From Bacillota bacterium (lineage in GTDB: Bacteria > Bacillota > Limnochordia > DTU080), in contig DULU01000089.1 of assembly GCA_012840225.1 (NCBI GenBank), forward strand, positions 14,089 through 78,088: a stretch of DNA of 64,000 nt, written 5' to 3'. Positions 32,906-51,305 of the stretch are shown here, piece by piece. The notes beneath the pieces were generated by a model. It did not search any database. It was not told the DNA's origin and saw only the letters and a list, made by a program, of their open reading frames with translations. Made by a program: the position numbers and the translations under genes. The stretch's first letter is position 1. Each line of letters starts with the position of its first letter.

Positions 32906-34162
32906 TTATGTACCGGCCTGGTAACTCCGCAAATAAGCCACCTGCTCCGGGGTCAAGGTTTCCAGCTTGATCCCCATGGAGGCCAGCTTCAACGCCGCCA
33001 CTTTCCTGTCGATCTCTGTGGGCACCGGATAGACCCGGCATTCCAGGCGCCCTTGGTTTTTGAATATATACTCGGCGCACAAAGCCTGATTGGCAAAGCT
33101 CATGTCCATGACCTGGGCGGGGTGTCCTTCCGCAGCCGCCAAGTTGAGCAGCCGGCCTTTTGCCAAAAGGCGCAGGCGGCGGCCGTCCGCCATTATAAAC
33201 TCATCGACACCCGGGCGCACCTCTCTAATCTCCACGGCCATCTCTTTCAGGGCGGCGAGATCCACCTCCACATCGAAGTGACCCGAATTGGCCACAACGG
33301 CACCGTCTTTCATCAGCGCAAAATGCCGGCCGGCCAGCACATGCTTGTTGCCCGTCACCGTCACAAAGACATCGCCTAGCGGCGCCGCTTCCAGCATCGG
33401 CATCACCCGGTAGCCTTCCATCACCGCCTCAAGCGCCCGCAGGGGATCGACTTCCACCACGATGACGTTGGCGCCCATGCCTTTGGCCCTCATAGCCAAC
33501 CCCCGGCCGCACCAACCATAGCCGATCACCACAAAGGTGGTGCCGGCGATCAGCATATTGGTGGCCCGCAGCAGCCCGTCGATGGTCGATTGCCCCGTGC
33601 CGTAACGATTGTCGAACATATGCTTGGTTAAGGCATCGTTGACGGCGATCACGGGAAACGGCAGCTGCTTGTCGGCCTCCATGGCTCTAAGCCTGATGAC
33701 GCCGGTGGTGGTCTCCTCCAGGCTGCCCATGATATGAGGGATCAATTCCCGCCTTTGCCCGACGATGGTGTTCACCAGATCGGCCCCGTCGTCCATAGTG
33801 ATCTGTGGCTCGGTGTCCAGCACCTGGTTTATGTGCCGGTAATAAGTGGCGGTGTCTTCCCCCTTCACCGCATAAGTAGGTATACTGTATACCTCATTCA
33901 ACGCCGCCGCCACATCATCCTGTGTAGACAGCGGATTTGAGGCGCATAGCGCCACTTTGGCCCCACCGGCCGCCAGGGTGCGCATCAGATTGGCCGTCTC
34001 GGTGGTGACATGCAGGCAAGCCCCGATGGTCAGGCCGCTGAGCGGCCTGGTTTTCAACCATTCATTTCTGATGCTGGAAAGGACCGGCATGGCAGCTTCT
34101 GCCCATTCTATCCTCCGCCGGCCAAGAGGGGCGAGCGTTCTATCCCGGCAATCTCCCGGCAT
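32906..34162 (-). CDS. ahcY: Adenosylhomocysteinase (SAH hydrolase)
   Basis: [37 protein letters not shown] and [12 protein letters not shown] motifs; start at the ATG after AGGAGG. Confidence 0.96.
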
Positions 34163-35075
34163 TCTGTGTCCTCCTATAACCGGCCAGGCGCTCTTCCGCC
34201 AGCCGGCAGTAATTCTCCTCAATATCGTACCCTACATAGTGCCTGCCGTTCATCAGAGCGGCGAGGCAGGTGGTCCCCGAACCGTTGAAGGGGTCAAGCA
34301 CCACATCGCCGACATAGGAATATAAGCGGATCACCCTGGCGGCCAGCTCTACCGGAAACGGGGCCGGATGGCCGATCTTGCGCGCCGACTCCGGCGCAAT
34401 CTCCCAGACCGACAGGGTGGCGGCCATGAATTCCTCCCGCGAGATGTCGCTTTCTCCCTTGTCGGGGCGACCAAAGCTCTCTTTCACCAAGACCAGCAGG
34501 TATTCGTGGATATCCCGCAGCCTGGGCGCCTTGGCCGAACACCAGCTGCCCCAGGCGCAACTGCTGTTCATCCCCTTGCCCTTCTGCCAGATGATCTCGC
34601 CGGCGGTCTTGAAGCCGATGGCCATATGCCTGGCGTAAAAGTAGGCATGGAGGGGGATATATGGCGCTCGCCCGATATTGGCGATATTGATCACATACCG
34701 GCCGCCCGGCCGCAGCACCCGGTATACTTCCGCCCCCACCCTGGCGATCAGATCCAGATATTCCCGGAGGGAGAGGTCTTCATCATAGGTTTTCCCTGTG
34801 TTGTAGGGTGGTGAAGTGAAGGCTAAGGCCACCGATTCATCAGGGATATGATGCATGTCTTCCGCAGTGTGGCAATAGACGCGGTTCGCCCATTCCTCAA
34901 GCGGCCGGTATGGGACCGTCCTCGCTGCGGCTTCCCGGTCAGGTGGGGGAGCGGCATAAAGCGCCGCTCCCATGAGCCCCGGATCGTCCTGATATAAACT
35001 GCGCCGGTAAAATTCGCCGGCATCATGCGCCTCGCGTTTTCCCGCTCCAAAAGAATAAGTTTTTGTTCTGCCCAT
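34140..35075 (-). CDS. Site-specific DNA methyltransferase (N4-C/N6-A, beta class), orphan
   Basis: FTSPPY catalytic motif precedes HPAPFP and [11 protein letters not shown] (SAM binding). Confidence 0.9.
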
Positions 35076-38810: not shown

Positions 38811-39785
38811 TCAAGAGATGTTTTTCTTTTTCTTTTGCTTTTTGTTGGGATGGTGTTTTACCTGTGGAGGAAGTGGTTGTTTATCAGCATTTTTGATTAT
38901 ATGGTCTACTGTTTGATCCAACATCGTGCGTATTTGCTGCAAGTGATCCAGGATGCGCTGGCGCTCATGGGCCGGCAGGTAAAAAGGGGCAATGCGCCGC
39001 AGCTGGGTGAGGGTCTCCTCCGATCTTTCCAGGACGGACACCCAGCGGTCGATATTCCTCTGCACCGCCATCCTTTCATCTTCCGCCTCTTTGGGCAACG
39101 GCTGCACATCGGCGGGACGCCGCACCAGTTTGACGGCTTCCTCCACCGACACGTCGGAGTTGGAGCGCACCAGAGCGCACACTTCTCTCGTCTCCACTTT
39201 GCTCAGCTTATATTCCAGTACGGCATCGAGAACGACATTGCATATGGCAGGGCTGCGCAGCTTATTGGCCAGGGCGCGAGCCTCGGATATATGTGAAAGG
39301 GTAAGAGGGGAATTGCCACCGTTAAAATTGTCTATCAATGCTCTCTGATACCGCTCCTCCACTTCCAGCACATCAAGCCAATCCGTGATGGTGGTGCGGG
39401 GAATGCCCAACCTTTTGGCGGTGACCACTTTGTTCAGCTTTTCCATGGTCATGAATTCATGCACGGCCAGAGCCCGTTCCACGGGATTTAAGTCTTCCCG
39501 CTGCAGGTTTTCGATCAGCTGCAGTTGCTTCACCGGCACGCCTGGTTTGAGGATGATGGCGGCAATAGTTTCTTTGCCGTTCATGATGGCCGCCCGCAGG
39601 CGCCGCTCGCCGGCGATCAGCTGATACCCCCCCTCCACCTCTTTTACCAGTATCGGGTGCAGCAGACCCACTTCTTCCATGGATTTAGCCAGTCCGACCA
39701 GGCTTTCTTTATTGAAAATTTTGCGCACTTGGTTTGGATCTCGTCGTACCAATTTTATAGGCACTTCGATAATTTCCAAAGGCAT
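38811..39785 (-). CDS. ParB/RepB/Spo0J family protein (orphan)
   Basis: PNQVRK.F, GLLHPI, LIAGERRLRA and IENLQREDLNPVE motifs plus an HTH; no parA adjacent. Confidence 0.88.
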   Translation of the reverse strand: MPLEIIEVPIKLVRRDPNQVRKIFNKESLVGLAKSMEEVGLLHPILVKEVEGGYQLIAGERRLRAAIMNGKETIAAIILKPGVPVKQLQLIENLQREDLNPVERALAVHEFMTMEKLNKVVTAKRLGIPRTTITDWLDVLEVEERYQRALIDNFNGGNSPLTLSHISEARALANKLRSPAICNVVLDAVLEYKLSKVETREVCALVRSNSDVSVEEAVKLVRRPADVQPLPKEAEDERMAVQRNIDRWVSVLERSEETLTQLRRIAPFYLPAHERQRILDHLQQIRTMLDQTVDHIIKNADKQPLPPQVKHHPNKKQKKKKNIS

Positions 39786-39976
39786 TCACCCCAATAGCGG
39801 ATGTTGGTGGTAACATTTGTAAGTATATTCGACAGAGGATATGGACAACCTTCATCTATCTTCATGTCCATATCTGGAAAAAATAATAATCACGCCGGAT
39901 TGCCACCCTAGAGTAGGCAACCCGACGTGATTATATCATGGACTAAGGCATCGGCTTTGTGATGCCGGTCAACTTT

Positions 39977-40906
39977 TTATCTGCTGGGTGTCAACGACAA
40001 GCCTACAACCGAGACTTGTTCGGCGGTAGTTAAGCTGATTTCATATCCCGCCGAGACGATCAGCTCTTCGCCTCTCACCAGCACGCCGCCCAACAATCCG
40101 GCCGGTCCTAATGCCACCAATCCCAACAGGCTGGCCCCCGCCGCCAACTCTGAGGTAGAGGGCTTTTCACCCGGCCGGGCGCTGCTCATCCTGATCGCCG
40201 TGCCGTCCAGAGCATAAACGGTGCCGAAATCGACGGTCACATCCGCATCCCGACCGAAGCTTCCGGCCGACCTCACTCCGGTCACCCGCCCGACGCCCTC
40301 GGCCCCGGCCGGAATGATCACCTTGGAATCGATAGTGATGTTCTGCAGCACCACATACTTGATTAGGTCGCCGGTCTTGGCCGTGCGGGAGCTGATTTCA
40401 TTCATGAGCTTTACCCGCACCTGAGTGCCTGCCGGCAGGCTCACCTTTCCGGTCTCCAGGTTGCCGCTGGGCCACACCAGACCGACCAGGCCGGCAATGC
40501 GGGTGTCGACGGGGCCGGTCTGGGCCGAGCCATAAACTTCCCGCTCTATCTGCTGCAGCCGGTTCACCAGGGGACCTCCCGGCGTCATGCGGCCGAAGAT
40601 CATCCACTCGGCACAGTTCAGCTTCATGATCAATGAGGAACCGCCGGTGCCCACGGTAGCTAAAGCTTTCAGATTATCGACCCGGGAGATGAGGCTTCCG
40701 GTCTGCGGATTGCCGAACAGATCCTTCTCAATGCGCTCGATGCGGGCCAGGAGACCGGCTTCCAAGGGCGTCACTTGCCCATATAAGCTTTGCTCAATAT
40801 CATTTAACGCCAATGCCGGTATGGCAACCTGGGCCGATGCCGCCGAGGCGATCATCATAACAATATTCATCACCAGTATAATGCCGAATAATGCCTTTCC
40901 CTTCAT
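39977..40906 (-). CDS. Secreted/periplasmic hypothetical protein
   Basis: Signal peptide, repeated IE..LYG/L..R helical motifs, and a beta-rich C-terminal domain (LPAGT.V.V.L...ISS). Confidence 0.7.
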   Translation of the reverse strand: MKGKALFGIILVMNIVMMIASAASAQVAIPALALNDIEQSLYGQVTPLEAGLLARIERIEKDLFGNPQTGSLISRVDNLKALATVGTGGSSLIMKLNCAEWMIFGRMTPGGPLVNRLQQIEREVYGSAQTGPVDTRIAGLVGLVWPSGNLETGKVSLPAGTQVRVKLMNEISSRTAKTGDLIKYVVLQNITIDSKVIIPAGAEGVGRVTGVRSAGSFGRDADVTVDFGTVYALDGTAIRMSSARPGEKPSTSELAAGASLLGLVALGPAGLLGGVLVRGEELIVSAGYEISLTTAEQVSVVGLSLTPSR

Positions 40907-40945
40907 TAAAATGGCTCCCCTTTCCTGTTGTTATTTGTTTATAGG

Positions 40946-42295
40946 TTAAAACCTGATGGAAAATTCGGCTATGGCCATATTGCCGCCGCTAGTTTCGGCG
41001 GCGTCTTCATCGGCCAGTGGGCTGCTCAATCTGTAGCCTAGCTTGATGGAAGCCCCGTTCACCGAGTACCGCAATCCAAAGTCGGCTATCTTCTCATTGC
41101 TTTTTTCATTGCCGATGATGGTTATACCGGCACTGGCTTCCGTTTCCGGCGTCAACCGAAAGCCCAAACCGGCACTGGTGGTATGCCTCCGCCACGGATC
41201 ACCTCCGGTCATCTTGTCTGTTGACAGCTCCTGCAAAGAGTAATGCAGGTTCAGATTCCATCTGTCCAATTCCACACCCAAGCCAACGGCAGTTGAAGAT
41301 GGAGAAGACAAAACCCCCCACATATTATCCGCCGCCTGCACCGCGGCCAAGTTGGCGCTCACACTTCTTCTTTCGCCGAAAGGATACCTCACCCCGAAGG
41401 AGGTGACGGCTTCCACACTATCGCTCTCGCCACCGAAGACGATATGCGAACGGCCGGCGGTCACCTGCACTTCGCCGACATCCACCGACAAACCGAACCC
41501 GGCCTGCTCCAGTTGCCCCTTGTCGCTCAAAAAAGCGTCGCCGGAGCCACCGAGGAAAGAGGCAGGTCTGTAGAGGCTGTAGTAATCATGGTTGGGGTAT
41601 AACAATTCCATTCCAGGTCCGGGCATGGAGCCTTGGGCGGAATTGATCACAGGCAACAGCCACTCATTGACCCGCTCGCCCAGCATGGCACTGAATGACG
41701 GGCGTTCGGCGACGGAGGCGCCATATCCCAGCTGTTCCATCTCAGGCCGGACAAAGGCCACCAGCCTGCGTATCTCCTCCATTTCTTCAGAAGTGAGGGT
41801 GGGCGTCAGGCCGGCATCGGCATATTGTTTCAGCAAGATATCAACCTGCCGGACTTTTTTCCGGACATCGGCAAAAGCCCTGCTTTCGCCGGGAGAGATA
41901 TGTTTTTCCAGCTGTATTTCCATAGTCTCGAGGGCGCTTATCACCCACAGTGCCGCCTCATAACGGCACATGCTGACCACCTGTGGGGAATCAACATCGG
42001 CAGTCGAATCAATGAACCCCAGGGTGAAAAGGCGGTTGATGATGCCATAGCTCCAATGCCCCTCGGGCAGCTCGGCAAAGGGGCTTTCCTCGGCAACCAC
42101 CTGAGCCGAGGCGGCGGCAGGGGCGAAAAACAGACAGTCCGATCCTATCGGCACAAGCAGATGCACTGCCACGAGCCAATATAGTAAAAACAGACTAAAT
42201 ACAGGTAGGCAATGGCGCATCGCCGCGATGCGATTTATGAACTTGTTGCCTGCCACCCTGGCTATCACCCCACAGCCTACGGTAATATTCTCCAT
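40946..42295 (-). CDS. SLH-domain outer-membrane beta-barrel protein (OmpM-like)
   Basis: PFAELPEGHWSY...RYEAA SLH-like motif; amphipathic beta-strand C-terminus ending AEFSIRF. Confidence 0.75.
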   Translation of the reverse strand: MENITVGCGVIARVAGNKFINRIAAMRHCLPVFSLFLLYWLVAVHLLVPIGSDCLFFAPAAASAQVVAEESPFAELPEGHWSYGIINRLFTLGFIDSTADVDSPQVVSMCRYEAALWVISALETMEIQLEKHISPGESRAFADVRKKVRQVDILLKQYADAGLTPTLTSEEMEEIRRLVAFVRPEMEQLGYGASVAERPSFSAMLGERVNEWLLPVINSAQGSMPGPGMELLYPNHDYYSLYRPASFLGGSGDAFLSDKGQLEQAGFGLSVDVGEVQVTAGRSHIVFGGESDSVEAVTSFGVRYPFGERRSVSANLAAVQAADNMWGVLSSPSSTAVGLGVELDRWNLNLHYSLQELSTDKMTGGDPWRRHTTSAGLGFRLTPETEASAGITIIGNEKSNEKIADFGLRYSVNGASIKLGYRLSSPLADEDAAETSGGNMAIAEFSIRF

Positions 42296-42426
42296 TCACT
42301 CCCAGTTACCTTTATATTTACTTACAATGTCTTCCTCTGCAAGCAGAAAATAGTCGAAAGACCTAAGGTATTTAGGACTTCGGTCACAGGCAAAGTGCCT
42401 AACTTTGACCGCCACTTTTTCCCGGG

Positions 42427-42930
42427 TCACGGTTGCTCTATCATTTGCAGATACCTCCGGGCCAAAACCTCCGCCACGAAATGATCGTAAGGCTCAGGCG
42501 GCGTCTGCAAGCCTAGAGGAACAAAGCGGCGCCAGCCTTTCCTGTTGGTCAAAAGATAAAGACGTCTCCCTTCCATGCTGGATTGATGTTCATCCACCTG
42601 GGCGATGGCCACCACCGGCTGCTTTGCTGCTGCACCTTCCTCAACGGCAGCCGTGGTCCCTGAGGAGAAAACCTGGCTGGTCATCGCTTCCAAACGCCGC
42701 CGCACCGCCCCGGAGCCGGTGCGATCGCCGAGGATCAATAAACAAGGATGATACTTGGCCACCAAATCCGCCAAAGCCGTCTCCAGCTGCCCGACATCCA
42801 CCACCTGCCGGTATAGGCAAAGGCCTTCGGCCGTCAGGACGGCAAAGCCGCATTTGGCCGTTCCCGGATCAATACCAATGTAATATGGCGCTGTATGATA
42901 CCGAGACGCCACACCGCCCCTCCTCGTCAT
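42427..42930 (-). CDS. YqgF/RuvX-like RNase H-fold nuclease
   Basis: IGIDPGTAKCG, LGDRT, VDE..SS.EGR..Y and D.FVA.VLA motifs. Confidence 0.82.
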   Translation of the reverse strand: MTRRGGVASRYHTAPYYIGIDPGTAKCGFAVLTAEGLCLYRQVVDVGQLETALADLVAKYHPCLLILGDRTGSGAVRRRLEAMTSQVFSSGTTAAVEEGAAAKQPVVAIAQVDEHQSSMEGRRLYLLTNRKGWRRFVPLGLQTPPEPYDHFVAEVLARRYLQMIEQP

Positions 42931-42933
42931 ATG

Positions 42934-42979
42934 AACGGCAGCGGACCTTTCCCTTTCACAGGTAAGGTCCGCTGCCGTT
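42934..42979 (-). terminator. Stem-loop downstream of the giant ompM-like gene
   Basis: aacggcagcggacctt/aaggtccgctgccgtt perfect 16-bp inverted repeat. Confidence 0.7.
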
Positions 42980-43028
42980 ATCTATCCGTTTTGGTCACGC
43001 CTGTTTACCGGCTTTGGCCGGCGCTTTT

Positions 43029-46000
43029 TTAGAACCGGATCACCACGCCGGTGTTCAGCTGCACAGCGGAGAAGCTGTTGACGGCGTTAGTTTTGTCCAC
43101 ATAGTTGATGTAATCCGCCTTGAGCTGGAATCCGGCAGCTTCATAGATCGGCAGATCCACCAGCAATTCCGCCGTGGAGTCGTCGACCTGGTTCTGTTCG
43201 TCGCCGACGCCGCTGCGCAGATTAACCTTACCGCTCACGGAACCTCCGGCCAGCGGACCGGCAAATTTCAGCTCCAGGGACTGCTTGGCCAAAGCCGGTA
43301 TGCCGGTGTTGATGGTTCTCCGCCAATCCAGAACGGATTCGAAGCGGATATTCTTGATGATAAACCCAGCTTTGAGGCCGGCTATCACCAACTCTTCATC
43401 AGCCGTCAGCCCGCCGACGGCCGTGGGTTTGTCCACCAGCTTGTTCAGCCCTGTATAAATGCCGGTGGTGAAGGTGCCGTTTTGCGCTTTGATCAGTTGC
43501 CAGTTCACCATCACCTGCGTCAGGCTGCGGTCGGTATAGGCGATCCAGTTCTGCCGCGGTTTGGTCGGATCGGCATTGGTATTGCGCCAACGCAGATCCC
43601 ACTCTTCTATCATCAACGGCGTATTCTCTTTCCGGTAGCCGGCCGATATGCGGAAGTTCTCGGTGAAGACCGGAAAGTCTTCTATCGCCAACCCCAGGAG
43701 AGAATGATTGAGATTGACGTCCGGTGTACCCTCCAGGCTATTGTTGCCCACCTCTACCGTGGCCCGCAGCGGCAGGAGAACCTTCATGTTGCGCTCGGCT
43801 CTGATCATGGACAAGGTGCGCTCGCCCTCGGAATTGCTCGTCACCCGGTGCACGATAGTGGTGTCGAAGTCCAGCGGGCGCAAGCCGCTGATCTCCAGAC
43901 TGGTATACTGTTCCTCCCCATAGAGGGCTCTATCCAGATTGGGCGCTGCGTATGGCTGCACCCACGAGTTGTGCATATAGCCATGCTCCAGGCTGGCCCA
44001 GATGCCTCTCATCCGGCCATGCTCATCGAGAGCCGGATTGCCGAAGAACCGGCTGACATACATCTGCAGCACCTGGCCCTGATTGACGTCGTTGTTGGCA
44101 CCGGTAATGCCATAGGACCAGAGCGGTGCCTTACCGCTGATCTCCAGCGTCGCCACCTTAGCCGCCGCATTGGTCAGCGGCCCGGCGTTGGTCCCGCCAA
44201 GATTCAGCCAGTTGGCCCGCACGACAAAGAGATCATGCAGCAGGGCCGAGGCGGAAATGGCCGTCACATGCGCCGGATCGTCGCCTGCGACGAATCCGCC
44301 GGCCGCATTAAGCCGTCTCGCCGTTCCCTGGCCGAAGAGCAAGTTGGCCTGCACTTTACGGCCGGCGAGATCGGCTTGCACCCCTCTGGTGCGCCACAGC
44401 ATGGCTTCCCATTTCTCAGCCGACAGGACGTATTCATTGTAGGAAGTGAAATCGACGCTTCTTTCCCCGAAGGGCTGGAGGCTGCCGATGCGCAGCGACT
44501 TCAGCGCGGAGGCGGTCGTCAGGTCGATTTCAAATCCCACGTCGGCCAGGCTGCCCTGGTCGTTCAGGTTTCTGGTGGCATAAATCTCGGCATCAAGTTT
44601 GGCCTGAGGAACCGGTTCCGTCTTCAGTATGATGCTGTAACGGGAGACCGCTTCATCTTTCAGGAACCGGGAGTTTTGGTACCAGTCGCCGCTCGCCGCC
44701 TGCTCCGCGTATGGCAAATTGCGCTCCCGCGGATCGCGGTAGATGGTCAAGCCGTCGGCGGCGGTATAGGAAACCGCTGACGCCAGGCTGATCTCGGTAT
44801 TCTCGAATTTCTTCTTCAGCGGCGCCAGGTCGTCGGCCACCTGATCGACAGCTTCGGACAGCTCGGCTATATTGCCGTGCATTCTTTCATCCAAAGCGAC
44901 CAGGTCGTTGCCGAGCCCTTCTATCTTGGCGGCGTTTTCGGCGATGGCCTGTTGATTGTCGCCAATCAACCCGGCATTCTGTTTTATCGCCGCCTCGTGC
45001 TCATCCAGACGGGCGATATTCTCCTCTACTTTTTCCTCCAGTCTCCGCTCCGCCTCTTCCAAGGCTGCCAGTCTGGCCTCGATCAACGCGGCTCTCTCTT
45101 CCAGGGCGGCCGCCCTTCTCTGCAGAGCCACCACATCTTCCGCCAGCAGCACTAAAGCATCGCTCAGCAGGTCGTCTACCGCCTTACCTTCTTCCATATC
45201 CTTCAGCAACTGCTCCAAGGTCTGCTGATGCGCCGCCACCTCGCTCCGGCAATCGGCCAGATCGGCCGCCAGTTGGTCGATGTTGGCTTTGGCTTCGGCG
45301 GCATCTTCCTGAAGGCCGGCGATCTCCCCCTGCATGGCGGTGATATTCTCCGCGGCGGCTTCGACTTTTTCGGCCGTCTGTTCCAGTTTTTCGTCGGTCT
45401 GCTTCAGCTGCTCTTCCATCTGCCCGACCCAGCCGGTCAGCTGTTCTATCTTGAGATTGTGGTCGAGAAGGCCGGCGGTCAGATCCATGATCATCGCTTT
45501 GTTCTCATTGATCAGGGCATCATGCTCCAGCAGTTGAGATGTCAGCCTGGAAATCATGGACGAATTGATCAGGAGCTGCTCGCTGTTTCTCTCAATCTGC
45601 TCGGCATTGCGGTTGATCCGCTCCAGGAGGGTGTCTTTCACCTCACCGACCTCGGCACCCAGCTTGACAAGGGCGAGCCGCTGCTGCTCCTGTTCGTCGG
45701 CCAAGGCCATCTGCTGCACTTCCAGGAGATAAATCTGCTCGGCGCTGAGCGCCACTCCGCTGATCAGACCTTCCTGTATCTCCTCCAGCTCGGCCAGTTT
45801 GCCGGCCTGAGCCTCTTGCTCCCCTGCCAGCATCTCCTGTGAGGCCGTCAAAGCAGCTTGTCCGGCAGCCAACTCATCGATGCGACCGGCATTAAGCATG
45901 ATCCCTTCGGACAGAGCATCCTGGCCGGCCTGCAGCACATCCTGGCCCGCTGCCAGGGCTTCAAGGCTTTCGCCGTGGGCGGCCTGGACGGAGGCCAACT

Positions 46001-48533
46001 CCTCGATTTTGTCTACCTGCCCGGCGACACTAGCTGCCAAAGCTCCCTGCTCTTCGGTCAGCCGGTCGATCCTTTCGGCATTGAACAGCACACCCTCGGC
46101 GAGAGCCTCCTGGCCCGCCGCCAGCTCATCCAGTTTTTGACCTTGCGCAGCCTGCCCGGTGATCAATTCATCTATCCTGCCTCCCTGCTCGGTAACTACA
46201 GCGGTCAAAGCCTCCTGCTTCTCCGTCAACTCATCGATCCTACCGGCGTTTAACTGTACGCCCTCGGCCAGAGCATCCTGGCCTGCCGTCAACTCCTCAA
46301 GGCGCCGGCTGTGCGTATCCTGAACGGCGGCGAGCTCGGTGGTCAGTGTTTCAATTTGGCTGCCTTGCCCGTCCACCACTTTCGCCAACTCCGCCTGCTC
46401 TCCGGCCAATTCTTCTATTTTACCGGTGTTGGCGGCTACATCCTGCGCCAGGGCAGCTTGATCTGCTGCCAGTTTATCCAGGCGCTCGCCCTGCGCCGCC
46501 TGCCCGGCCGCCAGATCACTTATCTGTTTGCCCTGATCGGCTTGGATCCCGGCCAGCTCCTCCATTTTGCCGGCATTGGCAGCCACATTTTCCGCCAGAG
46601 CGGCCTGATCCCCAGCCAGCCGGTCCAGGCGCTCGCCCTGCACTGCCTGCCCGGCCGCCAGATCACTTATCTGTTTGCCCTGATCGGCCTGATCCCAAGC
46701 CAGCTTATCCAGACGCTCACCCTGCACTGCCTGCCCGGCCGCCAACTTATCTATCTCGCCTCTCTGCTCATCCACCCGAACGGTCAAAGCATCCTGCTTC
46801 TCCGTCAAGGCATCTATCCTCTCGGCATTGAACAGCACGCCCTCGGAAAGCGCATCCTGTCCCGCCTCAAGCGCCTTCAGGCTATCTCCCTGGGCCGCCT
46901 GAGCCCCAGCCAACTCGTCCAGCTTGGCTGCCTGTTCGGCCTGGGTTTTCTCGATTGCTTCCACGCGTTGATACAAAGCAGCCTGAGCCTCTTTCAAACC
47001 GGCAACTTCCCGGCTCAAGAGGTCCAGCTCCACCCGGAACTCCTGACCTAAGGCTTCGATCTTGGCGGCTAAGTCGGCCACCCGCTCGGCCACTAAAGCC
47101 CGCAATTCTTCGACATCGCCTTTGACGGCGGCGAGGATCCTATCCATGTCGGCTACTTGATTCGCCAACTCATCAATCCGTTCCAAAGCCTTACCGATCT
47201 CTCGGGCCACTACAGCTTCCGCGATGTCGTTGGCGATTTTTTCGGCAGTTTTTCTGTCAATAAAATTCCCTATCGGCTGAGCCAACTCGTCGACCTTGGC
47301 TTCCATTTGCTTCAACCTATCAGCGATATCCTCATACACATGTTTCTGCAAAGCACTGATAGCCTGCTCATTAAGGGCAACTCCCTTTGCTAAGCCAGCA
47401 ATTTTTTCCAGAGCTTCCTCTGCCTTGCTGTCGGCCTTCTGCGCCAGATCTTTCGCCTCTTCGGCCAAGCCGGCCACTTTAGCCAGATCAGCCAGGGTGG
47501 CAAAGTTATCTGCCATCCTCTTTACTTCTTCCGCGAGCTTTTTGGCCTCTTCGGCCGTCGTCTGAGCCGCAGCTGCCAGATCCTGGGCTTTGGCCGCCAC
47601 CGCAAGAGCCTGTGCGGCATCGGTGGCCGCTCCCAAAGCTATCTCCCTCGTTTCCGCCAAGAGCCTCTCAACTTCTTCGGCAAGCTGTTGGGCCTGCGCA
47701 ATAGCTTCCTCCAGCTGTTGGAAACGCTGCGGCAATTCCTGTTCTATAGCTTCGACTTTAGCTAAAGACTCCTTAGCCGCAGCCAAGGACTCCTCCGCTT
47801 TGTCCAATGCCTTCTGCGCCAGGGCCAGCGCCTCCTGGGCGGCGGCTTGAGCCTCAAGCGCCTCATCTTTGGCATCCAAGGCCGTGTTATGAGCGTTGTC
47901 GGCGCTCTTCTGGGCAATATCCGCCCGCACCGCCGCTTCCTCCGCCCGCTTCAGAGCTTCCCCGGCCAAAGCCCCGGCCTCCTCGGCCAATTTACCCGCC
48001 CGGTCGGCTTTGCCGTCGATTTCCTGCACGGCCGCCTCCAGCTTCCCGGCTAACTCCTCGACCATTTTGGCGAGCTCATATGCGCTGTCGGCCCGCTCCT
48101 GGGCGCCGGCGGCCTTGGTGTAGGCTTCATCGGCACGGCTTTGCGCTTTGATGGCCTCCGCCAGAGCTTTTTTGGTCTCATCTATGTTTGACGCCAGATT
48201 CTTCTCCAGCTCCCCAATCCGACTATCCAAAGGCGCCACTTTATTCTCAATGCGGATATCGATTTCCCGTAACAGCAAGGACTCCATTCTCACCAAGATG
48301 CGGCTGAATACCATAGCCATCTCATACCTGGTAAACATGCGGTCCCCGCCGAAGGTACCGTCCGGATAGCCCTCGACCAGACCGGCGACGGCCAGGCTGG
48401 TTACGGCATCATAAGCCCAGTGATCCCTGGGCACGTCCGGAAACGGATTGGCGGCGGCCAATGTACCCTGCGTCAACAGCAAAAATATGAGTGCGAACAG
48501 GAAACCAGAAAGCCGTTTTTTTTGCATGCACAT
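43029..48533 (-). CDS. Giant OmpM/Omp-alpha-like envelope protein: SLH domain + ~1150-aa coiled coil + C-terminal beta-barrel
   Basis: Signal peptide; NPFPDVPRDHWAYDAV..L...GLVEGYPDGTF.G...TRYEMA SLH motif; heptad-rich A/E/Q/L stalk; beta-rich C-terminus ending GVVIRF. Confidence 0.88.
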   Translation of the reverse strand: MCMQKKRLSGFLFALIFLLLTQGTLAAANPFPDVPRDHWAYDAVTSLAVAGLVEGYPDGTFGGDRMFTRYEMAMVFSRILVRMESLLLREIDIRIENKVAPLDSRIGELEKNLASNIDETKKALAEAIKAQSRADEAYTKAAGAQERADSAYELAKMVEELAGKLEAAVQEIDGKADRAGKLAEEAGALAGEALKRAEEAAVRADIAQKSADNAHNTALDAKDEALEAQAAAQEALALAQKALDKAEESLAAAKESLAKVEAIEQELPQRFQQLEEAIAQAQQLAEEVERLLAETREIALGAATDAAQALAVAAKAQDLAAAAQTTAEEAKKLAEEVKRMADNFATLADLAKVAGLAEEAKDLAQKADSKAEEALEKIAGLAKGVALNEQAISALQKHVYEDIADRLKQMEAKVDELAQPIGNFIDRKTAEKIANDIAEAVVAREIGKALERIDELANQVADMDRILAAVKGDVEELRALVAERVADLAAKIEALGQEFRVELDLLSREVAGLKEAQAALYQRVEAIEKTQAEQAAKLDELAGAQAAQGDSLKALEAGQDALSEGVLFNAERIDALTEKQDALTVRVDEQRGEIDKLAAGQAVQGERLDKLAWDQADQGKQISDLAAGQAVQGERLDRLAGDQAALAENVAANAGKMEELAGIQADQGKQISDLAAGQAAQGERLDKLAADQAALAQDVAANTGKIEELAGEQAELAKVVDGQGSQIETLTTELAAVQDTHSRRLEELTAGQDALAEGVQLNAGRIDELTEKQEALTAVVTEQGGRIDELITGQAAQGQKLDELAAGQEALAEGVLFNAERIDRLTEEQGALAASVAGQVDKIEELASVQAAHGESLEALAAGQDVLQAGQDALSEGIMLNAGRIDELAAGQAALTASQEMLAGEQEAQAGKLAELEEIQEGLISGVALSAEQIYLLEVQQMALADEQEQQRLALVKLGAEVGEVKDTLLERINRNAEQIERNSEQLLINSSMISRLTSQLLEHDALINENKAMIMDLTAGLLDHNLKIEQLTGWVGQMEEQLKQTDEKLEQTAEKVEAAAENITAMQGEIAGLQEDAAEAKANIDQLAADLADCRSEVAAHQQTLEQLLKDMEEGKAVDDLLSDALVLLAEDVVALQRRAAALEERAALIEARLAALEEAERRLEEKVEENIARLDEHEAAIKQNAGLIGDNQQAIAENAAKIEGLGNDLVALDERMHGNIAELSEAVDQVADDLAPLKKKFENTEISLASAVSYTAADGLTIYRDPRERNLPYAEQAASGDWYQNSRFLKDEAVSRYSIILKTEPVPQAKLDAEIYATRNLNDQGSLADVGFEIDLTTASALKSLRIGSLQPFGERSVDFTSYNEYVLSAEKWEAMLWRTRGVQADLAGRKVQANLLFGQGTARRLNAAGGFVAGDDPAHVTAISASALLHDLFVVRANWLNLGGTNAGPLTNAAAKVATLEISGKAPLWSYGITGANNDVNQGQVLQMYVSRFFGNPALDEHGRMRGIWASLEHGYMHNSWVQPYAAPNLDRALYGEEQYTSLEISGLRPLDFDTTIVHRVTSNSEGERTLSMIRAERNMKVLLPLRATVEVGNNSLEGTPDVNLNHSLLGLAIEDFPVFTENFRISAGYRKENTPLMIEEWDLRWRNTNADPTKPRQNWIAYTDRSLTQVMVNWQLIKAQNGTFTTGIYTGLNKLVDKPTAVGGLTADEELVIAGLKAGFIIKNIRFESVLDWRRTINTGIPALAKQSLELKFAGPLAGGSVSGKVNLRSGVGDEQNQVDDSTAELLVDLPIYEAAGFQLKADYINYVDKTNAVNSFSAVQLNTGVVIRF
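45860..46900. repeat. Internal tandem repeats in the coiled-coil stalk
   Basis: GQ(D/E)AL(S/A)EG...NA.RID.L repeated four times; QADQGKQISDLAAGQA.QGERLD repeated with near-identical DNA at ~46480-46541 and ~46628-46689. Confidence 0.8.
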
Positions 48534-48860
48534 CTTCCCCTTTCATGTCGGCTTTGTACCAATACCAAATATCATATTTTGCGCTTCAATCAACAAATCC
48601 GGACATTGCAGATCGCTTTATACCTCTGAACCACACCAAGCGGATATTAATGAGATCAATTACGGCGAACAGGCGAAAACAGGCTGGTCAACATTTCTTA
48701 AATAATCAACAAAGTAGTATTCTAAACATGATTGGGAATCCCTTCCTGAAGTAATATTTTCCTGGGGTGATAATTCCCCGCATTTCCTCGTCCGGGCAGG
48801 TTATCGCCAGGCATTCGGTGAACCAAGATGCATAGGCATATAAAGAGCGGAGGTAAGTAA

Positions 48861-49307
48861 ATGACCGGCGACATGACCGTCCCGGCCTCACCCCAAGGCC
48901 GCATCAAGCGCATCATCGCTTTCCTGTTTCCCGTATCGGCCTATAAGCAAAGTCTGGTCTTACTAATAAGTCTGGTTATTGTTATTATCGGCTCGTTCCT
49001 GGGCAATGCTTTACCCGTCGATAATGCTAATTTAATCGCACCTATCATAGTTGGTTATTTTTTCGGAGGCCGGATCCATCCGCTCATCTTCATGGGAGCC
49101 GGAGCCACAGCCGCCTGCATCGCCGGTATCACCTGGTCGCTGGCCATTCTGAGCGGTGACAGCTGGGATATAACCTATGCCCTGGCCATCGCCAGCACCA
49201 GTTTCAATGTATTCGTCACCATGAGCCTGGGAGATCTGGCCCGCCGCGCTTACCTTCACCTGCGCCGGTTCAGGGAAAAAGGACGGGACAAAGCCAACAA
49301 TTCATAA
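48861..49307 (+). CDS. Hypothetical membrane protein
   Basis: 148 aa with about 4 TM segments; GGAGG RBS. Confidence 0.65.
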   Translation: MTGDMTVPASPQGRIKRIIAFLFPVSAYKQSLVLLISLVIVIIGSFLGNALPVDNANLIAPIIVGYFFGGRIHPLIFMGAGATAACIAGITWSLAILSGDSWDITYALAIASTSFNVFVTMSLGDLARRAYLHLRRFREKGRDKANNS

Positions 49308-51305
49308 CAACGTCCCCCGGCTTTCCCGGTACCAGTCCCGGATGATGGCCATCTCTTCCCGGCCCAGCCTGAACATGGTTCCCACCGCCTGATCGATGCG
49401 CTGCAGTCCGGCCAGTATCTCCTCGTCCCCGGACAACTCCTTATGGGCACTGGCGGCAGCTGAAACCAGCAGAGCTTCCTCAGCCACCGTCTGCCAAAGC
49501 GCCGAAGCGGCGGCCGCAGCCTGGTCCGATACGTCGAAAGCTTGAGAGACCAAGCCCGGCAAACCGGATATCGCTAAAGTGGGAGCCGGCATGGTGGGAG
49601 CCGGCATGGCGGGAACTGGCAGGTCGAGGAGATGGGCCAGCACCACATTGGTGGTGAGCCTGGCCCGGTCGTTATATCTGTGTTCGTAATAATAAGCTAC
49701 GACGGAGCTGTTCAGATATCCCAGCAGGGCGGCCTCGCTTAAGTTGGAATCGGCGGCCCTCAGGATATATACCCCTTGAGTGACATAGGCCTCCGAATCG
49801 TCCAACGCCGCCCTGATCTCGGGAGCGACCTTGGCTACCAGAACTTTTCTCCCCCGGAAATAATGCGGCTTTTTATAATCCACTCCCGGAAGGCCCGGTT
49901 CCAGCCAAAGCGGCTCGGCCAGGCGATATTTACGCACCTGCGCCCCGCCGTACACCGGCACGGTATGCCTGGTATCACGCTCCACTGTGATAAAGCGGTA
50001 GTCGGCCGCCGTCCCCCGCAATAGAAACCGGCAATTACGGCAAGGCTTTTCAGCCCTTTTCTTCTTAGGTATGGAGTTGTATTGCCCACAGCTGGGGCAT
50101 CGGACCAAGGCCCCATCTTTTCCATATTCCAGGCCACGGTGCCATCTGACATAGCGTCCCAGAACATGTCCCCCGGCAGCCTTTTCCATATGCTGCAATA
50201 AAGCCTGAGTTCTCTCCCCGGTATGTATCAAAATAGTAGCCCGACTGTGCAGGCGAAAAAGGCTCTGTTTCACCTCTCCGATACCGGAGATGACGACCTG
50301 CGGCTTCAACCCGACAGGAATGATCGTGGCGGCGGCTGTTTTTACCTTGGCCGCCGCTGAGGGCTTGTCGGTGCGGGTGGCCACCACCAACGCCACTTCC
50401 TGCAGTACACCCGGAAAAAGGGTGCCGGCATCTATGATCCATTCCAGTTCCGCCATATCCAGGAGCCGGCGCCGCACGGCACTGTAGTCGTGACCTTTGA
50501 AAAAGTTGCGCGGCAACACCAGGCCCATGCGGCCGCCGGGGGCCAGATGCTGTAAAATATTGACCACAAATATACTGAAGATATTTATATTATCCCCCGG
50601 CAGACCCAAAGCTCTGGCCTGCTCGACACCGGCTCCCTCGGCTCCCCACGGGGGATTGCTGAGAATGACGTCGGCATGCTTCAGAACCTGCCAGGGGTCA
50701 TCCCCCGCCCCTGCAGCGGATTTTTCAACCGCCGGCGCCACCGCATTGGATAATCTTAAGGTAAAACCGCCTGTGCCCCCGCCGGCGATGGTCAATATTC
50801 GCGCAGCGCACTTTAGGGCCTCTTCATCCACATCCATGCCGTAAAGGGAAGCCAATGCTCCCGCAGCCCCCTCCATCCGCTTCGGGAAGAGCCTGTGCTG
50901 CCGCTCCATGCGGTTGCGCAGGCCGGCCAGCACATAATGCAGCGTCTGCAAGCGGCGGAAGGCTGCCAGAAGAAAGCGCCCGCTGCCGCAGGCCGGATCC
51001 CCCACCACCAGGGTGGAAGTGCGCCGGCAGCAAGCCGTCAAAGCCCGCAGATCGTTATGTGCCAGCGCCGTCCGGGCTTCCCGGATGATGCCCCGCACCA
51101 ATGGATCCAAAGTAAGGTGAACAAGATACTCGACAACAGGTTTCGGCGTATAAAAGGCGCCCTTTTGCCGGCGCCTGTTGCCGACAAAGGGTTGCCTGGC
51201 CGCCTTCTGCCGCTCCAGAACCTCTTTCACCCATTTTTCTTCCGCCAGCCAAGCAGAGCGATATAACGCGCCCGCCGTCAAACCGGTAGGGCTATCCGGT
51301 ACCAA
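49302..51305 (-). CDS. N6-adenine DNA methyltransferase (gamma class, Eco57I/TaqI-like), orphan
   Basis: GAFYTP, DPACGSGRFL and ILSNPPW motifs in gamma order; TaqI_C-like LLGYLNSS; CxxC...CxxC insertion. Confidence 0.85.
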   Translation of the reverse strand: MVPDSPTGLTAGALYRSAWLAEEKWVKEVLERQKAARQPFVGNRRRQKGAFYTPKPVVEYLVHLTLDPLVRGIIREARTALAHNDLRALTACCRRTSTLVVGDPACGSGRFLLAAFRRLQTLHYVLAGLRNRMERQHRLFPKRMEGAAGALASLYGMDVDEEALKCAARILTIAGGGTGGFTLRLSNAVAPAVEKSAAGAGDDPWQVLKHADVILSNPPWGAEGAGVEQARALGLPGDNINIFSIFVVNILQHLAPGGRMGLVLPRNFFKGHDYSAVRRRLLDMAELEWIIDAGTLFPGVLQEVALVVATRTDKPSAAAKVKTAAATIIPVGLKPQVVISGIGEVKQSLFRLHSRATILIHTGERTQALLQHMEKAAGGHVLGRYVRWHRGLEYGKDGALVRCPSCGQYNSIPKKKRAEKPCRNCRFLLRGTAADYRFITVERDTRHTVPVYGGAQVRKYRLAEPLWLEPGLPGVDYKKPHYFRGRKVLVAKVAPEIRAALDDSEAYVTQGVYILRAADSNLSEAALLGYLNSSVVAYYYEHRYNDRARLTTNVVLAHLLDLPVPAMPAPTMPAPTLAISGLPGLVSQAFDVSDQAAAAASALWQTVAEEALLVSAAASAHKELSGDEEILAGLQRIDQAVGTMFRLGREEMAIIRDWYRESRGTLL

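Follow-up and report, generated by a model that had tools for sequence, protein, structure and literature searches.

The gene at 43029..48533 on the minus strand of the window, a stretch of 64,000 nucleotides of contig DULU01000089.1 (positions 14,089 to 78,088; assembly GCA_012840225.1), probably encodes an SlpA/OmpM-type connector between the peptidoglycan and the outer membrane (OM) of an uncultured Limnochordia bacterium, with a stalk of extreme length. We put the probability of this reading at roughly 0.7, with the formation of a trimer, the binding to the wall, the tethering and the geometry in vivo attributed to the protein by analogy with characterized connectors, and our confidence in any particular geometry of the stalk is much lower. 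The reading is built on the domain architecture, the heptad periodicity, a predicted barrel, a diderm host and the comparison of lengths and repeats among relatives. According to the list of open reading frames (ORFs) and its translation, the gene (P0001) is one uninterrupted ORF of 1834 amino acids (aa) with an ATG start, and it has no competing long ORFs besides low-complexity shadows on the opposite strand. The encoded protein consists of a signal peptide, a single SLH domain, a helical heptad stalk of ~1150 residues and a C-terminal domain of 595 aa. OmpM/SlpA connectors are a class defined by architecture, and every defining feature of it that can be tested was found in this protein. An earlier note, made from the letters of the window, had proposed an OmpM-like OM tether, and the combination of SLH domain, coiled coil and C-terminal barrel in a diderm Firmicute bears this identity out.

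The N-terminus, as far as it can be judged by eye, resembles a typical leader (aa ~1-27, MCMQKKRLSGF...GTLAAA, 48453..48533; all parts of the gene lie on the minus strand), with a basic n-region (KKR), a hydrophobic core and an Ala-rich LAAA end directly ahead of NPFPDVP. Such a leader and the Ala-rich end before an NPF motif are common to all complete relatives. The SLH domain (aa 30-73, 48315..48446) was recognized by PF00395 of Pfam with E 2.2e-9 and 37.6 bits, above the cut-off of 20.8. The signal peptide and single SLH domain of the earlier note both stand. It contains the motifs DHWAYDAV (WAY) and FTRYEMA (TRYE), which have been named as wall-binding determinants (PMC9388160; bioRxiv 10.64898/2026.01.22.700529). 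When aa 25-150 were compared with all sequences of the PDB, 14 sequences were matched at E ≤ 1, led by OmpM1 of Veillonella parvula (8bz2, 8bym and 8bys, E 1.2e-16 to 5.2e-16) and followed by SlpA of Deinococcus radiodurans (7zgx, E 1.4e-11). The genome encodes only one further SLH protein detectable by Pfam, which has three SLH domains and no barrel. It also contains four genes of the pyruvyl-transferase family, an unspecific family that was positive in 9 of 14 control genomes as well.

The C-terminal domain (aa 1240-1834, 43032..44816) has abundant aromatic residues, Gly and Pro and ends in ...VVIRF, in agreement with the beta-rich domain of ~590 aa and terminal Phe described before. Barrel prediction, proposed in the earlier note as a check, gave a positive answer: AlphaFold2 (AF2), supplied with an alignment of 18 sequences, modeled the 595 aa as an OM beta-barrel of ~28 strands (28 by DSSP) with a mean predicted local distance difference test score (pLDDT) of 85.7, a predicted template-modeling score (pTM) of 0.80 and no segment under pLDDT 50. 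Foldseek returned at least 353 matches of this model in the PDB at E ≤ 0.001, and among the best 50 rows, judged by entry name, 48 are OM barrels or barrel-containing complexes, while the other two, both FemA entries, were left unclassified. The matched barrels include TonB-dependent transporters, ushers, LptD, MtrB, porins and SusC, and SlpA entries occupy ranks 6, 9 and 13. After VIA re-alignment, MtrB reached Z 13.7 (root-mean-square deviation 5.5 Å, 452 aligned residues), the FimD usher likewise Z 13.7 and LptD Z ~12. On the strength of the model, these matches indicate a large OM barrel without pointing to any one family. At the level of sequence the domain is rare: an exhaustive phmmer search of 1,835,955,588 representative proteins yielded only five matches at E ≤ 0.001, one of them a 259-aa fragment identical to the query. 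A word-index search among proteins of 1008-3210 aa gave none at E ≤ 0.001, which is attributed to the word filter because the exhaustive search did find five proteins. Among the 17 connector frames of relatives, 16 likewise terminate in Phe, and the exception (G011) is truncated by a contig end. In Pfam, neither PF03895, which we take to be the YadA-anchor family, nor a related or autotransporter family was found in the connector. A trimeric autotransporter adhesin was rejected as a candidate on account of the missing PF03895 and of the ~28 strands per chain.

Between SLH domain and barrel, the stalk (aa ~85-1237) consists to 63-83% of Ala, Glu, Leu, Lys, Gln, Arg and Asp in every 100-aa block from aa 101 to 1200. 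It is nearly free of aromatic residues and contains three prolines in 1153 residues, all ahead of aa 430. Three parts can be distinguished: an Ala-rich N-arm (aa ~85-384, 47382..48281), delimited by register scan and composition, which holds two of the three prolines; a module conserved among relatives according to blastp (aa ~385-560, 46854..47381); and a C-arm (aa ~561-1237, 44823..46853), delimited by autocorrelation and register scan. The strongest offsets in the identity autocorrelation of the stalk are mostly multiples of seven, namely 7, 14, 28, 63 and 70 in aa 85-520 and 14, 21, 35, 42, 49, 56, 63, 70, 112 and 119 in aa 520-1010. A simple in-house scan of the a/d core, used in place of a published predictor, found one register over scan-window starts 482-730 (249 starts), a second over 731-917 (187 starts) and a third for most of starts 1003-1232, including 1003-1088, and shifts of register every 20-40 residues in aa 85-480. 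The heptads, formerly described as continuous from aa 85 to 1245, are thus upheld for aa ~482-1235 and not for the Ala-rich aa 85-480 with its frequent shifts. The C-arm contains degenerate repeats of 14 and 49 aa with a Gln-rich core. In the long tracks, position a is occupied by Gln, Leu, Val or Ile and position d by Leu, Gln or Asn, about one third of the core positions are polar (Gln/Asn), and Gly is common at e, f and g. Matches of the stalk to SMC, Rad50 and ZapB are far under the cut-offs of these families and reflect coiled-coil composition. With the usual rise of ~0.148 nm per residue, the 1153 residues would span ~170 nm and the uninterrupted part alone ~110 nm, if fully extended. 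Folding three copies of aa 580-900 together gave a score of 0.02, which speaks neither for nor against a trimer; the stalk is presumably a trimer by analogy with the solved relatives only.

Repeat mis-assembly, which the earlier note had named as a way in which the length could be spurious, is unlikely. The stretch is present in 20 listed public runs of 11 studies, all from digesters, biogas plants or sludge. Six of these runs are RNA libraries, and their contigs may be taken as a hint of transcription, not as proof. Contigs from four independent runs besides the likely source are collinear with the gene over 42900-48700, filling 27-29 of 30 bins, most pieces being at least 99% identical and without indels, and one contig of 3508 nucleotides spans the barrel plus ~560 residues of the stalk. 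A tandem repeat in the DNA of the C-arm (46477..46756 on the minus strand; Tandem Repeats Finder, periods of 147 and 84 bp, ~1.8 copies) is the only place where the listed contigs break (~46528-46684), 20 further pieces being outside the listing. At this repeat, one contig from an RNA library shows a joint that goes back by 147 nucleotides, a possible extra unit of 49 aa. The length is consequently uncertain by about ±49 aa at most and not by an order of magnitude.

A profile of the barrel matched 18 of 95 genomes of the class and all five other genomes of the same family. The five relatives from a genome collection are metagenome-assembled genomes (MAGs) binned as Limnochordia (two), Clostridia (two) and Kiritimatiellia (one, on a contig of 4.2 kb). 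The latter contig (L002/L048, 4201 bp, 'Kiritimatiellia bacterium') carries a barrel homolog with 35% identity; since all other relatives are Limnochordia or Clostridia, it looks like a case of mis-binning rather than of transfer. With boundaries set by a composition heuristic that is good to ~30 aa, the C-terminal domain measures 545-632 aa in 15 complete relatives and 597 aa in the protein studied here, one further frame being truncated by its contig. The stalks, in contrast, have 586, 642, 860, 1153 (this gene) and 1228 aa within the family and 177-578 aa in 12 proteins of other families. The comparison of stalk lengths suggested in the earlier note thus yields a range of 177-1228 aa with this gene near the top, and its statement that the stalk is much longer than in known relatives proved correct, the solved OmpM and SlpA structures being far exceeded.

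With the SLH region as query, 87 of the 95 class genomes were matched at E ≤ 1e-10, and only two of them contain open frames of more than 1600 aa (1837 aa in the genome studied here, G000, and 1878 aa in G005). The next-longest frames have 1521, 1386, 1322, 1301 and 1252 aa, and three single-contig genomes carry only frames of 352-549 aa, which is ordinary OmpM size. In an index of 5.8 billion proteins, 50 proteins of 1008-3210 aa share the SLH domain at E ≤ 1e-8 (181 candidates). Those without a recognizable extra domain other than coiled coil have 1017-1517 aa; of the 13 longer ones, nine carry PF03895 and the other four other families. The gene and its counterpart in G005 are the longest of their kind that we found, in a search of the index that was word-limited and missed both.

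The stalks have grown at different places. The conserved module was matched by blastp in 11 of 16 relatives (E 2e-5 to 5e-12) and lies directly ahead of the barrel in five of the seven matching proteins outside the family, whereas this protein (680 aa) and all four aligned family members have a C-arm of ~210-680 aa between module and barrel. The N-arm of this protein lacks a counterpart in the short-stalk relatives. From SLH domain to module, this arm has ~0-300 aa outside the family, ~300 aa here and ~800 aa in G005, so that this protein enlarged mainly the C-arm and G005 mainly the N-arm. The repeat units differ as well: 49-aa units of 14-aa sub-repeats with 85% local identity here, 14, 28 and 56 aa in G005, 106 aa in G001, 83 aa in G003 and offsets of 77, 139, 146 and 216 aa in G004, and no internal repeats were seen in most of the short-stalk proteins. 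Because the units differ by lineage, the two longest stalks, as judged from their sequences, were built largely independently. In a sister lineage, three records (L050, L051 and P0005; 1523, 1337 and 1399 aa) are 99.2-100% identical over shared columns and differ in nothing but the number of copies of a 62-aa unit, by three and by two. Such differences could arise either from strain polymorphism or from collapse of repeats during assembly, and in either case the lengths are, if anything, under-estimated. As 62 residues correspond to eight heptads plus six residues, each unit should hold one heptad discontinuity. A metagenome scan with a four-row alignment retrieved only six short loci, all from lineages already seen.

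The gene comes from a Limnochordia MAG of anaerobic-digester origin, whose 3.55 Mb are spread over 154 contigs at a completeness of 96.6%. Genes for Omp85/BamA (158 bits) and LpxC (305 bits) mark the host as a diderm with lipopolysaccharide (LPS). LptD was not found in this genome with the Pfam family, which was positive in just 2 of 14 control genomes, and the miss may only reflect divergence. The P ring and L ring proteins of the flagellum, FlgI (382 bits) and FlgH (145 bits), are encoded as well. Usual type II secretins carry only a few Secretin_N domains. A secretin of the same genome (L047, G000:C30:2-5170, plus strand) has at least 14 of them ahead of one Secretin domain in an open frame of at least 1723 aa, which runs off the contig start and in which the first ~230 aa are repeated almost exactly. 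This suggests that long periplasmic distances are bridged somewhere in the cell. The secretin frames listed across the class mostly have 400-1180 aa, with 2097 aa reached in G027. Across the class, the length of the connector and that of the longest secretin frame showed no simple pattern when compared, in a set in which secretin types are mixed and many frames truncated by contig ends: G005, with its 1228-aa stalk, has listed secretins of at most 650 aa, and G027 has a 578-aa stalk and the 2097-aa frame. Limnochordia are one of three diderm lineages of Firmicutes and are already listed with SlpA-like/OmpM proteins whose coiled coils are "much shorter" than those of SlpA (PMC9388160). Cultured members are 0.15-0.30 µm wide and form round bodies of up to 1.5-2 µm (PMC11456536).

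The connector gene is part of a cluster that is largely conserved. Directly downstream lies a RuvX/RuvC-like gene of 167 aa (42427..42930, minus strand; sub-threshold for RuvC/RuvX in Pfam), followed, two genes downstream of the connector, by a shorter, paralog-like ORF of 449 aa (40946..42295, minus strand) and, at the end of the conserved cluster, by a secreted protein of 309 aa without known family (39977..40906, minus strand). By tblastn, this order is largely kept at the loci of 17 relatives, several of which are truncated by contig ends. The RuvX-like gene, an odd yet stable neighbor between two envelope genes, stands beside the connector in 12 of the 17 loci; the small SLH-like barrel gene was found in 11, in eight of them beside the connector and outside the connector's own SLH region, and the gene of the 309-aa protein in eight. 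In the 449-aa ORF, the leader is followed by an SLH-like domain of degenerate sequence (PEGHWSYG ... CRYE), by helices and by a small beta domain that ends in IRF. Its N-terminal domain is similar to the connectors of six relatives in their SLH region (E 1e-4 to 9e-4), and a match to Porin_4 stays sub-threshold (E 0.0056). With an alignment of ten sequences, AF2 produced a model of moderate pLDDT (64.4), in which SLH-like helices and 11 strands are seen besides a linker of ~70 aa that is disordered. The small barrel protein is shorter in the family studied here than elsewhere (349-423 versus 460-600 aa). In size it is nearer to OmpM than the giant connector is. It may represent the OmpM of ordinary length in these bacteria. 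In the 309-aa protein, a segment of the form 'L..RI..IE..L(F/Y)G' occurs in three similar versions, and the C-terminal half is rich in beta structure; neither Pfam nor NCBIfam has a family for it, with a TrbI-like match staying sub-threshold (E 0.074). By analogy with the lipoprotein DR_0644, which accompanies SlpA, it could be an accessory of the connector.

Nearby, the window also contains an N6 DNA methylase of Eco57I/TaqI_C type (667 aa, 49302-51305), an N4/N6 methylase (311 aa, 34140-35075) and a ParB-like nuclease/HTH protein (324 aa, 38811-39785), all on the minus strand, and methylase and ParB homologs flank the connector in its closest relative (L028) too. Over 39800-49000, scans for promoters and terminators gave no excess over shuffled sequences (7 versus 4.0 ± 1.9 and 12 versus 8.9 ± 3.2).

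In the reading that we prefer, the protein would be exported by Sec, and the barrel assembly machinery (BAM) would insert the ~28-stranded barrel into the OM by means of its beta-signal with terminal Phe. The single SLH domain, presumably trimeric like its solved relatives, would bind the wall through peptidoglycan or a polymer of the wall, and the ~1150-residue stalk, presumably a trimeric coiled coil, would bridge the distance between SLH domain and barrel. Rather than as a rigid ruler, the stalk may serve as a long, somewhat compliant leash that would prevent loss of the OM and let it sit, or locally or conditionally balloon, up to ~110-170 nm from the wall. Such a separation might occur at the cell poles, in round bodies or in a shared sheath, with close contact elsewhere. 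The stalk would change its length fast in evolution as heptad-based units are duplicated in tandem, and related genera would do so independently of each other.

Several observations weigh against this reading. A profile of 18 C-terminal domains had no match among PDB sequences at E ≤ 1, and no meaningful family was found for the domain in Pfam or NCBIfam; lacking a sequence relative in PDB or Pfam, the barrel is not established as a homolog of OmpM or SlpA barrels. The N-arm could be a compact bundle, because it has many register breaks. Flagellar L and P rings form a compact stack that requires the OM to be near the wall, and FlgH and FlgI imply sites of close contact between OM and wall, as does the short SLH-like barrel in the connector's own cluster. 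Stalk length varies two-fold in one family and by repeat copy in one lineage, which one would hardly expect if the structure determined a critical distance. The narrow cells of the cultured relatives speak against a wide gap, and the host itself is uncultured.

Compaction of the stalk by folding back, by formation of helical bundles or by arrangement in an in-plane periplasmic lattice would leave the spacing of OM and peptidoglycan ordinary, and the extra length would then serve mechanics, such as elasticity or scaffolding, or partner binding. The frequent register breaks of the N-arm and the position of the prolines in the first part of the stalk fit this idea. With about a third of its core polar and with Gly at e, f and g, the C-arm may well be a coiled coil of marginal stability that can be deformed, and both the flagellar rings and the short paralog need close apposition. 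Moreover, V. parvula OmpM1 stalks occur in compact and in extended forms (PMC10628300). However, the arms are unequal, with ~300 aa against ~680 aa in this protein and ~800 aa against ~250 aa in G005, so that a single hairpin at the conserved module would leave a large offset, and the C-arm is free of Pro and has one or two register changes over ~700 aa and no obvious turn sites. We regard a compacted stalk as unlikely.

The opposite extreme, a fully extended trimer that stands perpendicular to the wall as a rigid ruler, would give the whole cell a toga-like periplasm of ~110-170 nm, the width of which would be set by the number of repeats. Such a ruler would be in line with ~750 residues of unbroken, Pro-free heptads, with the secretin of 14 Secretin_N domains and with the fact that two genera independently arrived at stalks of ~1150-1230 aa. 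In D. radiodurans, the length of the stalk indeed equals the distance between OM and peptidoglycan (PMC9388160). Nevertheless, we consider a uniform periplasm of this width improbable in view of FlgH and FlgI, of the short SLH-like barrel protein within the same conserved cluster, of the 0.15-0.30 µm width of cultured relatives (PMC11456536) and of the lack of a simple co-variation between secretin and stalk lengths, as in G005 and G027. A broader version may be put forward as a speculation that is itself unlikely: in one family of digester Limnochordia, the OM would be held at least 100 nm off the wall by SlpA-like rods, in a toga-like sheath or in ballooned zones, with the distance tuned by repeats even between strains and other machines such as the secretin stretched to match. 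If true, this would be an envelope unlike that of any described Firmicute.

Export of the coiled coil through or beside its own barrel, to project from the surface as an adhesin or hair, is very improbable. An N-terminal rod followed by a C-terminal barrel is the classical order of autotransporters, the structural matches include barrels that house another chain (FimD, MtrB and LptD), and an SLH protein of a relative has been discussed as a candidate for an S-layer protein (PMC11456536). The SLH domain with its WAY and TRYE motifs, however, is most similar to the periplasmic SLH domains of OmpM1 and SlpA, there would be little point in placing a wall-binding domain at the far end of a fiber outside the cell, and no autotransporter or YadA-anchor family was detected. 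An ORF inflated by repeat mis-assembly or a chimeric join, for which the 147/84-bp tandem repeat with its contig breaks and the single 147-bp joint could be invoked, is hardly credible in the face of indel-free, collinear contigs from four independent runs, of frames of 1252-1878 aa in relatives from other assemblies and of sister-lineage records that differ by whole units, the longest having 1523 aa, which fits under-counting and not inflation.

Connectors of this kind are already known, and the novelty lies in the extreme length of the stalk, its three-part anatomy and the change of length by repeats. In the passages covered of the literature on OmpM, on SLH domains with coiled coils and on Limnochordia, we found neither a stalk of such size nor the three-part anatomy nor repeat-driven change of length; the supplementary tables of PMC9388160 may list Limnochordia examples. 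OmpM/SlpA connectors are thought to be the ancestral attachment of OM to wall in Terrabacteria, and their loss has been proposed as a route from two-membraned to one-membraned bacteria (bioRxiv 10.1101/2021.05.31.446380). A series of orthologs within one class, with stalks of ~180 to ~1230 residues that differ in steps of whole units, is a ready-made natural experiment, with which it can be tested whether stalk length sets the width of the periplasm and how the rest of the envelope machinery adapts. The series further draws attention to abundant bacteria of digesters that may have a structurally unusual envelope, and it offers a very long natural coiled coil with a Gln-rich core for structural study.

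Among the known systems, Omp-alpha of Thermotoga maritima has a few hundred residues and ends in a transmembrane helix, whereas the connector ends in a barrel. Braun's lipoprotein (Lpp) of E. coli has 58 aa. It acts as a periplasmic ruler, a trimeric coiled coil between wall and OM with a length related to periplasmic width (PMC8824477). Its sequence has no relation to that of the connector, and it is held by a lipid anchor and a covalent bond to peptidoglycan. In sequence, the SLH domain comes closest to that of OmpM1 of V. parvula, a proven tether between OM and peptidoglycan (bioRxiv 10.1101/2021.05.31.446380) that has the same three-part plan and belongs to the same phylum. The ~430 aa of OmpM1 include a coiled coil of ~40 aa and a porin barrel of 16 strands (PMC10628300), compared to which the stalk of the connector is ~25 times longer and its barrel nearly twice as large. 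SlpA of D. radiodurans and Thermus thermophilus (7zgx, 8ae1) has a similar SLH domain (7zgx, E 1.4e-11) and a barrel closer in size (30 strands versus ~28 here), albeit without detectable sequence similarity between the barrels. In D. radiodurans, its 28-nm coiled coil of ~160 aa matches a gap of 30 ± 3 nm between OM and peptidoglycan within a periplasm of 121 nm (PMC9388160), and the ~1150-aa stalk described here is about seven times longer. Unlike SlpA, the connector belongs to an LPS-bearing Firmicute, and its stalk is composed of lineage-specific repeats around a conserved module.

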